In this document: positions 2,261 to 7,089 of the stretch, in pieces
How positions within the stretch are numbered: position 1 is the first letter of the stretch
How the letters are laid out: the number at the start of each line of letters is the position of its first letter
Virus record (IMG/VR): IMGVR_UViG_2700989167_000004
DNA length: 8,909 bases
Origin: a virus
Lineage: Duplodnaviria; Heunggongvirae; Uroviricota; Caudoviricetes
Direction: 5' to 3' (one strand)
Program-made: the position numbers and the translations under genes
Notes under the pieces: generated by a model
Told to the model about the DNA's origin: nothing
Databases searched by the model: none
Seen by the model: only the letters and a program-made list of their open reading frames with translations

Positions 2261-2464
2261 ATGGTTACAGTCGCTGAACTGCAGGCGCTGCGTCAGGCGC
2301 GCCTTGATTTATTAACCGGTAAACGGGTTGTGTCGGTACAGAAAGACGGTCGCAGGATCGAATATACGGCAGCGTCCCTGAATGAGCTTAACCGTGCGAT
2401 CAACGATGCGGAGTCGGTTCTGGGTACGACCCGACGCCGCCGACCGCTGGGAGTGAGGTTATGA
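2261..2464 (+). CDS. W: Head-tail joining protein W (gpW-like)
   Basis: A 67-aa ORF (…LLTGKRVVSVQKDGRRIEYTAASLNEL…TRRRRP…) matches recalled lambda gpW (…[27 protein letters not shown]…TQRRRGP…). GGAGG at 2251-2255 sits 5 nt upstream of the ATG; the start abuts the terminase stop (TGAATG) and the stop overlaps the portal start (ATGA). Confidence 0.88.
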   Translation: MVTVAELQALRQARLDLLTGKRVVSVQKDGRRIEYTAASLNELNRAINDAESVLGTTRRRRPLGVRL

Positions 2465-4054
2465 AACGAACGCCTGTCCTGATTGATGTGAACGGCGTTC
2501 CGCTTCGTGAGAGTCTCAGCTACAACGGAGGCGGCGCAGGATTTGGCGGGCAAATGGCAGAGTGGTTACCACCGGCGCAGAGTGCCGATGCGGCCCTGTT
2601 GCCTGCATTGCGTCTGGGGAATGCCCGGGCAGATGATCTGGTGCGCAATAACGGTATCGCGGCTAATGCGGTGGCCCTGCATAAGGATCATATCGTCGGG
2701 CACATGTTTCTTATCAGCTACCGTCTGAACTGGCGTTGGCTGGGGATGCGGGAGACCACGGCAAAAAGTTTTGTCGGGGAGGTGGAAGCAGCCTGGTCGG
2801 AATACGCAGAAGGAATGTTTGGCGAGATCGACGTGGAAGGGAAACGCACGTTTACGGAATTTATCCGTGAAGGGGTGGGCGTGCATGCCTTTAACGGCGA
2901 AATCTTTGTGCAGCCGGTCTGGGATACGGAAACCACGCAGTTATTCCGTACGCGTTTTAAAGCCGTGAGTCCGAAACGGGTGGACACGCCAGGACACGGT
3001 ATGGGGAACCACTTTCTGCGGGCCGGGGTTGAGGTCGATCGGTATGGGCGGGCGATTGCGTACCATATCTGTGAGGATGATTTTCCGTTCTCTGGTGCCG
3101 GACGCTGGGAGCGGATCCCGCGTGAGCTTCCCACCGGGCGTCCGGCCATGCTGCATATTTTTGAGCCGGTGGAGGACGGGCAGACCCGTGGGGCTAATCA
3201 GTTTTACAGCGTAATGGAGCGGATGAAGATGCTGGACTCCCTGCAGGCCACGCAGCTTCAGTCGGCCATTGTGAAGGCGATGTATGCAGCCACAATCGAA
3301 AGTGAACTTGATACCGAAAAGGCATTTGAATATATCGCGGGGGCACCGCAAGGTCAGCAGGATAATCCGCTTATTAATATTCTGGAGAAGTTCACCCGCT
3401 GGTATGACACGAATAACGTGACGCTGGGCGGTGTTAAAATTCCGCACCTTTTTTCCTGGCGATGCGCTGAACCTGCAGACAGCGCAGGATTCAGACAATG
3501 GATTTTCGGCGCTTGAACAGGCGCTGCTGCGGTATATTGCAGCCGGTCTTGGCGTTTCCTACGAACAGTTGTCCCGTGATTACTCGAAGGTCAGTTACTC
3601 AAGTGCCCGCGCCTCCGCCAATGAGTCGTGGCGCTATTTTATGGGGCGGCGAAAATTTATTGCGGCCCGGCTGGCCACGCAGATGTTTTCCTGCTGGCTG
3701 GAAGAGGCGCTTCTTCGGGGGATTATTCGTCCGCCACGGGCACGTTTTGATTTTTACCAGGCGCGTTCAGCCTGGTCACGGGCAGAGTGGATTAGCTCCG
3801 GAAGAATGGCCATTGACGGGCTCAAGGAGGTCCAGGAATCGGTGATGCGCATTGAGGCCGGACTGAGCACGTATGAGAAAGAACTGGCACTGATGGGCGA
3901 AGATTATCAGGACATTTTCCGCCAGCAGGTCAGGGAATCCGCAGAGCGCGAAAAAGCCGGACTCTCACGTCCGGTGTGGATAGCCCAGGCGTATCAGCAG
4001 CAGATAGCGGAGAGTCGCAGGCCGGAAGAGGAGACAACATCACGTGAGACGTAA
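2461..4054 (+). pseudogene. B: Portal protein (lambda gpB-like), split into two ORFs (2461..3516 and 3431..4054) by a +1 frameshift in a T6 run at 3449-3454
   Basis: The first ORF matches the lambda gpB N-terminal two-thirds (…YNGGGAGFGGQ…GNARADDLVRNNG…FEPVEDGQTRGANQFYSVMERMKMLDSLQATQLQSAIVKAMYAATIESELDT…GGVKIPHL). The second ORF matches the remainder (…PGDALNLQTAQDSDNG…LLRYIAAGLGVSYEQLSR…ARASANESW…SGRMAIDGLKEVQE…IEAGLSTYEKE…). Removing one T from the T6 run gives …KIPHLFPGDALNLQ…, colinear with lambda …KVPHLMPGDSLNLQ…. Confidence 0.85.
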
Positions 4055-5619
4055 TCTTTCACATATTATCGCTGCGGCATTCAATGAGCCGCTGCTTCTG
4101 GAGCCCGCCTATGCGCGGGTTTTCTTTTGCGCGCTCGGGCGTGAGATGGGCGCAGCAAGCCTTTCGGTACCGCAACAGCAGGTACAGCTTGACGCTCCCG
4201 GGATGCTGGCTGAAACGGACGAGTACATGGCCGGAGGCAAACGACCTGCCCGTGTTTACCGGGTGGTGAACGGTATTGCTGTACTGCCGGTGACCGGCAC
4301 GCTGGTACACCGGCTGGGTGGCATGCGGCCATTTTCCGGAATGACTGGCTATGACGGCATTGTCGCCTGTCTTCAGCAGGCAATGGCGGACACTCAGGTA
4401 CGGGGCGTACTGCTGGACATTGACAGTTCTGGCGGGCAGGCCACCGGCGCGTTTGACTGCGCTGACATGATTTACCGTCTCCGGCAGCTGAAGCCTGTCT
4501 GGGCACTGTGCAATGACACGGCCTGTTCAGCCGCCATGTTACTGGCATCGGCCTGCTCCCGACGGCTGGTTACCCAGACATCCCGTATCGGCTCCATTGG
4601 GGTGATGATGGGCCATGTCAGCTATGCCGGTCATCTGGCACAGGCCGGTGTGGATATCACGCTGATTTACGCCGGATCGCACAAGGTGGATGGCAATCAG
4701 TTTGAATCCCTGCCAGCAAAGGTTCGCCAGGACATGCAGCAGCGCATTGATGCGGCGCGCCGGATGTTTGCTGAAAAAGTGGCGATGTATACCGGTTTAT
4801 CTGTGGATGCGGTTATGGGAACAGAGGCCGCCGTTTTTGAAGGTCAGTCCGGTATTGAGGCCGAACTGGCGGATGAATTAATCAATGCGTCGGACGCCAT
4901 CAGCGTGATGGCTGCGACGCTGAACACACACGATACAGGAGGCACTATGCCGCAATTAACTGCAACGGAGGCTGCCGCGCAGGAGAACCAGCGAGTGATG
5001 GGGATCCTGACGTGTCAGGAAGCGAAAGGACGTGAACAACTGGCCACGATGCTGGCAGGGCAACAGGGTATGAGCGTTGAGCAGGCCCGGGCGATTCTGG
5101 CCGTGGCGGCACCGCAACAATCTGGTGTATCTGCGCAGAGTGAAGCCGATCGCATTATGGCATGTGAAGAGGCGAAAGGACGTGAACAACTGGCGGCAAC
5201 GCTGGCGGCGATGCCGGAGATGACGGTGGAAAAAGCCCGTCCGATTCTGGCTGCTTCACCGCAGGCGAATGCCGGACCCTCACTTCGTGATCAGATTATG
5301 GCCCTGGATGAGGCAAAAGGGGCAGAGGCGCAGGCTGAAAAACTGGCGGCCTGTCCGGGGATGACCGTGGAGAATGCCCGGGCTGTACTGGCGGGGGNNN
5401 NNNNNNNNNNNNNNNNNNNNNNNNNNNNNNNNNNNNNNNNNNNNNNNNNNNNNNNNNNNNNNNNNNNNNNNNNNNNNNNNNNNNNNNNNNNNNNNNNNNN
5501 NNNNNNNNNNNNNTGAACATTTCATGGCGAACCATTCACCGGCAGCGGTACAGGGTGGCGTGCCACAGACGTCAGCAGACGGTGATGCGGACGTGAAAAT
5601 GCTCATGGCCATGCCATGA
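4044..5619 (+). CDS. C: Prohead protease / minor capsid protein C (lambda gpC-like, S49 SppA-type peptidase family); interrupted by an assembly gap (N run 5398-5513), so the true length and frame across the gap are unknown
   Basis: From the GTG start at 4044 (GGAG about 10 nt upstream) the N-terminus RRNLSHIIAAAFNEPLLLEPAYARVFFCAL matches recalled lambda gpC (ELRNLPHIASMAFNEPLMLEPAYARVFFCAL). Further conserved blocks include NGIAVLPVTGTLV, SGMTGYDGI, GAFDCADMI, KPVWAL, SRRLVTQTSRIGSIGVMM, ITLIYAGSHKVDGN and YTGLSV. The post-gap ORF ends at the TGA at 5617-5619. Confidence 0.8.
4947..5619 (+). CDS. nu3: Nu3-like scaffolding protein, a nested in-frame internal start within C (by analogy with lambda C/Nu3); spans the assembly gap
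   Basis: An in-frame ATG at 4947 is preceded by a strong AGGAGG (4937-4942). The product begins MPQLTATEAAAQENQRVMGIL, positionally equivalent to the recalled lambda Nu3 start inside C (GGRMTKETQ…NSRIMGIL). Confidence 0.5.
5013..5397 (+). repeat. In-frame tandem repeat (about 141-150 nt period, at least 3 imperfect copies) inside the C/Nu3 coding region, running into the assembly gap
   Basis: Copies start near 5013, 5163 and 5304 and encode CQEAKGREQLATMLAGQQGMSVEQARAILAVAAPQQ / CEEAKGREQLAATLAAMPEMTVEKARPILAASPQAN / LDEAKGAEAQAEKLAACPGMTVENARAVLAG. A near-exact 23-nt core gcgaaaggacgtgaacaactggc recurs at 5022-5044 and 5172-5194. Lambda gpC/Nu3, as recalled, has one copy (CEEAHGREEQARVLAETPGMTVKTARRILAAAPQ). 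Confidence 0.7.
5398..5513. other. Assembly gap (116 consecutive N)
   Basis: Direct observation of an N run. The reading frame before the gap (codons in phase with 4044) and after it (in phase with 5374) differ, so the gap length is a placeholder. Confidence 0.99.
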
Positions 5620-5655
5620 AGTCAGTGCTGACCATCAATATGAGGTTTTTACAAT

Positions 5656-6003
5656 ATGGTAACGAAAACCATCACTGAACAGCGTGCGGAAGTACGTATT
5701 TTTGCCGGTAATGATCCGGCCCATACCGCCACAGGCTGCAGCGGGATTTCCTCGGCAACACCGGCTCTGACGCCCCTGATGCTGGATGAGGATACCGGGA
5801 AACTGGTGGTCTGGGACGGACAGAAGGCAGGCCATGTGGTTGGCATACTGGTACTGCCGCTTGAAGGTACAGAGACGGTGCTGACGTATTACAAGTCGGG
5901 GACCTTTGCGACGGAGGCCATCCACTGGCCTGAGAGAGTGGATACACACAAAAAGGCGAATGCCTTTGCCGGCAGTGCCCTGAGTCACGCAGCGCTGCCG
6001 TAA
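5656..6003 (+). CDS. D: Head decoration protein D (gpD-like)
   Basis: A 115-aa ORF with blocks DPAHTAT, TPLMLDE, KLVVWDG, VGIL, YYKSGTF, WPE and AFAG, colinear with recalled lambda gpD (…[37 protein letters not shown]…VGILA…TFYKSGTFRYEDVLWPE…RTAFAGTAISIV). GAGG lies about 10 nt upstream of the ATG. Confidence 0.9.
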   Translation: MVTKTITEQRAEVRIFAGNDPAHTATGCSGISSATPALTPLMLDEDTGKLVVWDGQKAGHVVGILVLPLEGTETVLTYYKSGTFATEAIHWPERVDTHKKANAFAGSALSHAALP

Positions 6004-6060: not shown

Positions 6061-7089
6061 ATGGGATTGTTTACGACCCGCCAGTTACTCGGTTATACCG
6101 AACAAAAAGTTAAATTTCGTGCGCTGTTTCTGGAGCTGTTTTTCCGCCGTACGGTGAATTTCCATACCGAAGAGGTAATGCTGGACAAAATTACCGGAAA
6201 AACGCCGGTGGCGGCCTATGTCTCCCCGGTTGTTGAAGGAAAGGTGTTGCGTCACCGTGGCGGTGAAACTCGTGTACTGCGCCCGGGCTACGTTAAGCCG
6301 AAACACGAATTTAATTACCAGCAGGCGGTGGAGCGTCTTCCCGGTGAAGATCCGGCCCAGCTGAACGGCCCGGCTTACCGTCGCCTGCGTATCATCACCG
6401 ATAACCTCAAACAGGAAGAGCACGCCATTGTCCAGGTGGAAGAGATGCAGGCGGTGAATGCCGTGCTGTATGGCAAATACACCATGGAAGGAGAGCAGTT
6501 TGAAACTGTTGAGGTCGATTTTGGCCGGTCGGTGGGAAATAACATTACGCAGGCAGGAGGGACGGAGTGGAGCGCTCAGGACCGCGATACCTTTGATCCG
6601 ACGCATGATCTGGATGCGTACTGTGATTTTGCTTCCGGCACCATCAATATTGCCATTATGGATGGTAAGGTCTGGCGTCTGCTGAATGGCTTTAAGCTGT
6701 TCCGCGAAAAACTGGATACCCGTCGTGGCTCAAATTCACAGCTGGAAACGGCAGTGAAAGACCTGGGGGCGGTGGTGTCCTTCAAAGGGTATTATGGTGA
6801 TCTGGCAATCGTGGTGGCAAAAACGTCCTATGTGGCAGAGGACGGTACCGAAAAACGTTATCTGCCGGACGGCACACTGGTACTGGGAAATACGGCCGCA
6901 GAGGGTATTCGTTGCTACGGTGCCATTCAGGATGCGCAGGCATTGTCTGAAGGCGTGGTGGCGTCTTCCCGTTATCCGAAACACTGGCTGACCGTGGGTG
7001 ATCCGGCGCGTGAATTCACCATGACGCAGTCCGCGCCGCTGATGGTGCTGCCGGATCCGGATGAGTTTGTGGTGGTGCAGGTGAAATAA
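6061..7089 (+). CDS. E: Major capsid protein E (gpE-like)
   Basis: A 342-aa ORF colinear along its full length with recalled lambda gpE (341 aa): PGYVKPKHE, RLPGEDP/RLPDEDP, QVEEMQAV, LYGKYTMEGEQFE, NNITQAGGTEWS, KEKLDTRRGSNSQLETAVKDLG, YGDLAIVV, GDPAREFTM and QSAPLM. Confidence 0.93.
   Translation: MGLFTTRQLLGYTEQKVKFRALFLELFFRRTVNFHTEEVMLDKITGKTPVAAYVSPVVEGKVLRHRGGETRVLRPGYVKPKHEFNYQQAVERLPGEDPAQLNGPAYRRLRIITDNLKQEEHAIVQVEEMQAVNAVLYGKYTMEGEQFETVEVDFGRSVGNNITQAGGTEWSAQDRDTFDPTHDLDAYCDFASGTINIAIMDGKVWRLLNGFKLFREKLDTRRGSNSQLETAVKDLGAVVSFKGYYGDLAIVVAKTSYVAEDGTEKRYLPDGTLVLGNTAAEGIRCYGAIQDAQALSEGVVASSRYPKHWLTVGDPAREFTMTQSAPLMVLPDPDEFVVVQVK

Follow-up and report, generated by a model that had tools for sequence, protein, structure and literature searches.

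In phage lambda, Nu3 serves as the scaffold, and the protease gpC shares the Nu3 sequence and degrades this scaffold. Scaffolding proteins of the P22 type carry a coat-binding helix-turn-helix that is single, terminal, and basic. A set of repeats in the head genes of phage 21, called Tri boxes, was reportedly described by Smith & Feiss in 1993, in Gene 126:1-7. The GenBank entry for the phage 21 head operon (M81255) lists these as repeat_regions named “Tri1 box,” “Tri box,” and “Tri3 box” within genes 5/6, and describes them as “function unknown; putative.” Phage 21, a laboratory phage that is viable with the triplication, was sequenced anew in 2022 (PMC9119081), and its complete genome is available as OL657228. 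For lambda, two-hybrid analysis gave Nu3-E, Nu3-Nu3, and Nu3-C contacts, the Nu3-E contact not being mapped to the repeated module discussed below, and the same source lists an Nu3-B interaction from the literature along with the entry “C may degrade Nu3” (PMC3224144). Our own literature search on the phage 21 head-gene triplication found nothing relevant.

Here we examine the corresponding gene in an 8.9-kb stretch of viral DNA (IMG/VR record IMGVR_UViG_2700989167_000004; 8,909 nt), which as a whole is called the window. The reading that we favor, with a probability of about 80%, is that its repeat region corresponds to the phage 21-type Tri box triplication and consists of three old modules that act as scaffold contact units.

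A protease and scaffold gene of the phage 21 type

The list of open reading frames and the Pfam matches identify the window as a lambda-like head operon with the following features.

293-2260, gene for the terminase large subunit, with a W-like gene next to it
2461-3516 and 3431-4054, portal gene, split into two ORFs
4044..5397, + strand, 5′ part of the gene-5 / lambda C homolog, with a GTG start at 4044 and 451 codons up to the N run
4937..4949, + strand, putative start site of the internal scaffolding gene, equivalent to phage 21 gene 6 and lambda Nu3, read directly as AGGAGG at 4937-4942 and an in-frame ATG at 4947
5001..5111, + strand, core of module 1, residues 320-356 (module HMM i-E 6.9e-21; Tri1 box at 5014-5117)
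5151..5261, + strand, core of module 2, residues 370-406 (module HMM i-E 7e-21; Tri box at 5154-5264)
5292..5397, + strand, core of module 3, residues 417-450 (module HMM i-E 1.1e-16; Tri3 box at 5295-5408)
5398..5513, no strand, N run of 116 N, of arbitrary length
5514..5619, + strand, 3′ end of the gene, comprising the last base of a Phe codon, 34 codons (EHFMANHSPAAVQGGVPQTSADGDADVKMLMAMP), and TGA at 5617-5619
5656-6003, D-like decoration gene (PF02924)
6061-7089, E-like major capsid gene, the gene 7 / E homolog (PF03864)
3′ of the E-like gene, head-completion and tail genes

The gene starting at 4044 encodes an S49 prohead protease fused to a scaffold region and is located between the portal gene and the D-like and E-like genes, an arrangement that annotated relatives share. 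Residues 147-292 of its product match Peptidase_S49 (PF01343) with an E-value of 2.6e-33 and a score of 115.6 bits against a cut-off of 24.9, and the product also matches phrog_53, “head maturation protease” (E 8.6e-194). The S49 match bears out the assignment of the repeat region to the shared C-terminal part of a gpC homolog, as the earlier note had proposed. The catalytic Ser of lambda gpC, which we take to be S166 after Medina et al. 2010, is conserved in an alignment of lambda NDMNCSAGQLLASA (NCSAGQ) with window NDTACSAAMLLASA (ACSAAM). The motif GSHKVDGN is common to lambda gpC and the window protein as well. Annotated relatives of the S49 gene product are 501 amino acids long.

The DNA upstream of the modules has the appearance of an internal start. 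The AGGAGG element precedes ATG 4947 with a spacing of 4 nt, and at the equivalent place of phage 21, entry M81255 annotates a ribosome-binding site and the CDS of gene 6 (1587-1591 and 1598, offset by +3349). Two independent gene calls (P0003 and P0004) begin at this nested ATG and yield proteins of 199-200 amino acids. On the strength of these signals, the C-terminal ~200 residues are predicted to be made separately as a scaffolding protein from the internal in-frame start, and the nested Nu3-like product postulated from the DNA is probably the counterpart of the annotated gene 6 in phage 21. The portal gene of the window is frameshifted; the window prophage may therefore no longer be under selection.

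The match to phage 21 extends to the repeats themselves. Positions 4850-5700 of the window are 92.1% identical to phage 21 DNA, and the window protein is collinear with phage 21 AAA32343. When the offset of +3349 is added to the Tri box positions in M81255 (1665-1768, 1805-1915, and 1946-2059), the boxes fall at window positions 5014-5117, 5154-5264, and 5295-5408, which match the repeat families and the HMM matches. The triplication is thus already known: in head gene 5/6 of the phage 21 type it was annotated decades ago, under the name of Tri boxes. It is also widespread: 1870 of 5426 complete E. coli genomes match positions 4850-5700, with 1862 of them (about a third of the genomes) covering at least 80% of this segment. 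The window feature is a common allele of an ordinary prophage gene. As a side observation, position 5013, from which the earlier note had counted the repeat region, is the start of Tri1.

Three consecutive, imperfect, in-frame copies with periods of 150 and 141 nt had been claimed from the letters of the DNA, and the repeat family, alignment z-scores, and module HMM agree on this point. A seed-based DNA repeat family (D2) places copies at 5066, 5216, and 5357, with spacings of 150 and 141 nt and 66-76% identity. The corresponding protein units are ENQRVMGILTCQEAKGREQLATMLAGQQGMSVEQARAILA, SEADRIMACEEAKGREQLAATLAAMPEMTVEKARPILA, and SLRDQIMALDEAKGAEAQAEKLAACPGMTVENARAVLAG. The module is ~37-40 amino acids long, with pairwise identities of 24/38, 18/33, and 22/35 (45-63%). 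Smith-Waterman scores between copies are 106, 77, and 98, compared with a mean of ~24 (standard deviation ~4.7) for shuffled sequences, which corresponds to z-scores of 18, 11, and 16; none of 2000 shuffles reached the observed scores. An HMM of the module, obtained by iterative building from members of the family, likewise returns three matches in the window protein, where the part of module 3 that precedes the Ns covers HMM positions 1-34 of 37 and the last ~3 positions are hidden. Tandem Repeats Finder reported nothing for the window because the copies are less than ~70% alike.

The same HMM matches lambda gpC once, at residues 363-399 (i-E 1.4e-18), and no second module was found in gpC with this model even at domE 1. 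The single copy that the earlier note had given for lambda is thereby confirmed. To view the wider family, we considered the 130 near-full-length relatives among the top 150 of a HMMER scan of 1.84 billion cluster representatives. One module is present in 98 of these proteins and three modules in a single protein; the other 31, which carry a different C-terminal region, have no detectable module. From the predominance of single-module proteins (98/130), one copy is taken to be the usual condition and the ancestral one, and only the phage 21/Salmonella/P0092 group has three.

Structure and constraint of the candidate contact modules

AlphaFold2 models a single module as a helix (2-28), a loop, and a second helix (32-42) with a pLDDT of 71.7, and every module is predicted to form a helix of ~27 amino acids, a loop (GxxGM), and a helix of ~11 amino acids. 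The model of the full Nu3-like protein (199 amino acids) has a pLDDT of 54 and a pTM of 0.16, with no confident packing between modules, an absence that fits a beads-on-a-string arrangement. Database searches located no Pfam or NCBIfam model specific to the module. Neither the Nu3-like protein nor a module profile of 17 sequences found a sequence relative in the PDB below E = 0.1; chance matches to RNF31, to haemoglobin, and to a 24-residue chain of 9hqv (Toxoplasma mitoribosome) were dismissed. Foldseek found nothing below E = 1.7 in the PDB for the single-module model, a 40-residue hairpin that is too small for a fold match to carry meaning.

We propose that each module would be an independent scaffold contact unit, connected by a flexible linker to the next. 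The likeliest partner would be the major capsid protein, and self-association of the scaffold is also possible. The protease chain would be brought into the prohead by the same tail as the scaffold, and one scaffold or protease chain could make up to three contacts instead of one. After assembly of the shell, the protease would degrade the whole scaffold region, as in lambda. On the basis of established lambda biology, the more specific proposal, in which the module contacts the capsid protein, other scaffold chains, or both, such that the phage 21 type would be trivalent and lambda monovalent, has a chance that we place at or slightly under one half.

It is possible, and we would give the idea appreciable weight without favoring it, that the modules are functional but have a partner other than the capsid protein, with roles in scaffold oligomerisation, portal recruitment, or as docking or cleavage sites for the protease. 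Such roles are consistent with the Nu3-Nu3, Nu3-C, and Nu3-B interactions that are reported for lambda beside Nu3-E (PMC3224144), with the lack of the basic character seen in the P22 coat-binding element, and with the failure of Foldseek to return a structural match. However, this explanation overlaps with our preferred one, which already allows for self-association of the scaffold.

Sequence conservation bears on whether all three modules contribute. In an alignment of Nu3-like proteins that reaches down to 45% identity, the motif residues particular to each copy are invariant. When the modules are placed in a neighbour-joining tree, which is weak given that each module offers 37 residues, the first copies from E. 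coli, Salmonella, and others form one clade near the single copies of the lambda type, and copies 2 and 3 group largely by position. This pattern indicates that the triplication was probably present before the E. coli and Salmonella types diverged. Calculated over 65 distinct alleles, pN/pS for modules 1, 2, and 3 comes to 0.235, 0.200, and 0.217, with 0.11 for the protease domain and 0.93 for the linker of nine residues that separates modules 1 and 2. All three modules are thus under purifying selection, as constrained units connected by linkers that vary more freely.

These data make it unlikely that one copy is functional and that the other two are tolerated filler that lengthens a disordered scaffold. 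Lambda and most relatives do manage with one copy, the structure models are of low confidence, and the core of copy 3 in the E. coli type is degenerate: in place of EAKGRExLA it reads EAKGAEAQAE, without the Arg and the Leu, so that its binding may differ. However, filler would not be expected to show a pN/pS near 0.2 in all three modules when linker 1-2 is near 0.93, nor motif residues that stay invariant in each copy down to 45% identity, nor a number of three that was already in place when the E. coli and Salmonella types diverged and has been kept ever since.

Age of the triplication and the run of Ns

The term “amplification” had implied a recent event, and for the window lineage this implication does not hold: the copies are old (45-63% amino acid identity), orthologous by position, and fixed in 78 of 80 close relatives. 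These 80 IMG/VR relatives are at least 94% identical to the window in the protease domain, and all but two have an intact ORF of the same 501-amino-acid length with three modules; the two exceptions are truncated. Rare deletion variants do exist in the window lineage, with two copies in P0021 and a partial deletion within copy 2 in P0010.

The 116-N gap does lie where it had been placed, at 5398-5513 and directly after the third copy, but “at least three” copies becomes exactly three, and the copy number can no longer be called unresolved. The two ungapped IMG/VR contigs L007 and L008 are nearly identical to the window (left of the gap they show a single mismatch over 3851 nt, right of it none over 2003 nt), and where the window has GGG and 116 N they carry 49 nt, CAGCCTCAGGCAGGGCAGAACCGGTTTCTGCATCCACAACCGCCATGTT, encoding ...AASGRAEPVSASTTAMF. 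The same 49 nt are present in E. coli O121 (L001), ECMA0423 (L005), and Shigella flexneri SFBU1023 (L006), and FDAARGOS_943 (L004) has an intact 501-amino-acid gene. The 3′ tail of the gene is identical in L001, L007, and L008. When filled in, the protein reads ...ARAVLAAASGRAEPVSASTTAMFEHFMANH... and comprises 501 amino acids with exactly three modules. Judged from L007 and L008, then, the window gene is predicted to have exactly three copies and a 501-amino-acid product.

The 116 N put the downstream part of the gene out of frame (4044 mod 3 = 0, 5515 mod 3 = 1); the N length is thus an estimate, and the end that the ORF list gives at 5516 is artefactual. There is no room for a fourth copy, which needs ~141-150 nt, more than the 116 N. 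The GGG at 5395-5397 departs from all relatives, which read GCAG where the window reads GGGG, with mismatches at 5395 and 5396.

We consider it very improbable, therefore, that the window lineage has undergone a recent and unstable amplification with strain-dependent copy number and further copies in the gap. The sister lineage described below does behave in this manner, with two to five copies and units that are up to 100% identical, and the P0021 and P0010 deletions show that variants arise in the window lineage too. However, 78 of 80 relatives keep 501 amino acids and three modules, and the copies share exact matches of at most 23 nt while being orthologous by position across genera. Moreover, the near-identical contigs carry 49 nt in the gap, whereas an extra copy needs ~141-150 nt. 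The reading in which some or all of the copies are an assembly artefact of a single-module, lambda-like gene is already refuted: the region does adjoin the N run and the preceding GGG disagrees with the relatives, but three copies occur base for base in finished genomes and independent contigs, in phage 21 by both Sanger and Illumina sequencing, and in 1862 complete E. coli genomes at a coverage of at least 80%, and read duplication cannot be their source because their DNA identity is only 66-76%.

It had also been suggested that the assembler broke on the repeat. We find this unlikely, since the gap follows copy 3, whose longest exact DNA match to the other copies is 8-10 nt (copies 1 and 2 share 23 nt), and the assembler probably did not break on the module repeat. 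The whole segment recurs in lambdoid prophages that share a host, at up to 5 places in one complete E. coli genome, and contigs of draft assemblies often end in the S49 gene. In protein databases, many large clusters labelled “S49 family peptidase, partial” likewise begin or stop within this gene at the edge of a contig. The representative of one of them, P0002 with 382 member sequences, comes from a 518-nt contig that spans residues 299-469 and ends beside the window gap. A homolog search with the 150-amino-acid region gave mostly contig-end fragments and was of no use for a survey of copy number. These findings suggest collapsed inter-prophage repeats with breaks at mosaic boundaries, which may also account for the gap in the window. 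An IS element in the gap, considered in view of an ISEc60 transposase under the FDAARGOS_943 match, was rejected; in that genome, ISEc60 is located between FII-like and Z-like genes, and the S49 gene is intact.

Module number in a sister lineage and in described systems

Outside the window, a P0041-type lineage of E. coli prophages, with 56 IMG/VR loci, has a C/Nu3 gene with a strict 46-amino-acid (138-nt) period and two to five modules. Four is the modal number, found in 46 of the 53 loci with a complete ORF, while two and three modules occur in 3 loci each and five modules in 1. Copies 2-4 of one locus (L098) are 100% identical in DNA. Finished genomes bear out this variation: STEC313 encodes a 584-amino-acid protein with five modules (WP_250696612.1), and PapRG-04-4 encodes a 492-amino-acid protein with three. 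The sister type is present in 108 complete genomes, most of which span four modules. It resembles the window in its architecture and module, and its copy 1 is orthologous; it differs in its strict 138-nt unit and polymorphic number, and its amplification is genuinely recent, unlike that of the window. The expectation in the earlier note that copy number varies among related prophages is therefore correct for the sister lineage (two to five) and incorrect for the window lineage (fixed at three). In the searchable literature, a weak search found no description of the two-to-five copy polymorphism.

We tentatively suggest that module number could be an adjustable “valency” of the lambdoid scaffold and protease: lambda and most relatives have one module, the phage 21 type has a constant three, and the sister lineage is actively shifting anywhere from two to five; this idea is some way from being the probable one. 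If it is true, a change in module number might alter the scaffold:coat ratio or the kinetics or fidelity of assembly. For the window itself the consequences carry little weight, as it holds a common allele of a well-studied gene and a gap that can be filled from public contigs. The natural series of one to five modules in similar head operons offers a test system for scaffold valency that could draw on lambda/21 genetics.

The window modules can also be compared with the coat-binding element of P22-type scaffolds. Both are short helix-loop-helix elements, predicted in the case of the window, in the C-terminal part of a scaffold that is, or in the window type would be, removed before DNA packaging, and the resemblance is functional only. 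The P22-type element is single and terminal, whereas the window modules are internal and repeated and are followed by a 48-amino-acid tail. The window module is also without the basic character of the P22 coat-binding helix-turn-helix.

Lambda gpC/gpNu3 shares with the window type an S49 domain, a conserved catalytic Ser, an in-frame internal start, the same module, and a gene that lies between the portal and D/E. The tail motifs are similar as well (TALDRLM...AP in lambda and TAMFEHFM...SP in the window). However, lambda has one module in 439 amino acids, whereas the window type has three modules in 501 amino acids and a shorter linker before module 1. Genes 5/6 of phage 21 correspond to the window in the gene, the gene order, the nested start, the three boxes, their coordinates, and the length of 501 amino acids. 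The differences from phage 21 are allelic only, apart from the N run that replaces 49 nt and the frameshifted neighbouring portal gene of the window.

Mosaicism and gene integrity in the window

Alignment of the window with the E. coli O121 locus (L001) reveals an abrupt mosaic boundary at ~4917/4918, within the gene that encodes the S49 prohead protease and its nested scaffold. There are 57 mismatches over nucleotides 4044 to 4917 (~93.5% identity) and none over nucleotides 4918 to 5394. The switch is located slightly 5′ of the nested scaffold start at 4947, where the protease domain meets the scaffold domain. Directly 5′ of the N run, nucleotides 5395 to 5397 are GGG, wherein the window reads ...GCGGGGG and all relatives read ...GCGGCAG. 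This GGG is probably an error at the contig end rather than genuine sequence.

The portal gene (2461 to 4054) is present as two overlapping ORFs, spanning nucleotides 2461 to 3516 and 3431 to 4054. At ~3449, the window carries a run of six T nucleotides, whereas the intact portal gene of E. coli FDAARGOS_943 has five, such that one T has been added within the run. The extra T is also present in two near-identical IMG/VR contigs (L007 and L008), because both align to the window here without gaps. The T6 run therefore reflects either a real frameshift of a defective prophage or a homopolymer sequencing error common to all three records. FDAARGOS_943 (NZ_CP065615; L004) is the nearest finished relative of the entire window (98.4% identity). 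It carries ISEc60, an IS4-like element at L004 positions 7948 to 9138 between the FII-like and Z-like genes, that is absent from the window.

Rare variants and assembly breaks

Within the lineage of the window itself, relatives of nucleotides 4947 to 5397 include three infrequent protein variants. Two of them, P0021 and P0091, are each either a singleton or the representative of a cluster:

P0021, 158 aa: copy 1 runs into copy 3, so that two modules remain.
P0010: 18 residues are missing within copy 2.
P0091, 382 aa: the stretch between the protease domain's end and the middle of copy 2 is missing.

These variants may be genuine recombinants or assembly errors. Large clusters annotated as “S49 family peptidase, partial” (P0002, P0015, P0016, P0069, and others) hold hundreds of members apiece, which start or stop at contig edges within the gene, mostly at residues ~330 to 400 and near 469. 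The gene is evidently a frequent break point of draft E. coli assemblies, probably because it includes a segment common to co-resident prophages.

C-terminal regions among related proteases

Other S49 prohead proteases (including P0114, P0119, P0149, P0170, and P0173) lack the module and differ in their C-terminal region, where a separate helical motif recurs (e.g., ...I.LC..AG......LI..G.S...). The region looks like an alternative scaffold tail within the same protease family.

The C/Nu3 gene of the sister lineage (L087–L140 from IMG/VR, L143, and L144) is built from a 138-nt (46-aa) repeat unit of strict period. Module number is polymorphic, with 2, 3, 4, or 5 per gene and 4 the most common. 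Finished genomes bear this out, with five modules in one (584 aa; STEC313, NZ_CP041433, L143) and three in another (492 aa; PapRG-04-4, NZ_CP049201, L144). DNA identity between internal units reaches 100% in L098. The sister-lineage array is genuinely a recent amplification, whereas the three-copy array of the window is not.
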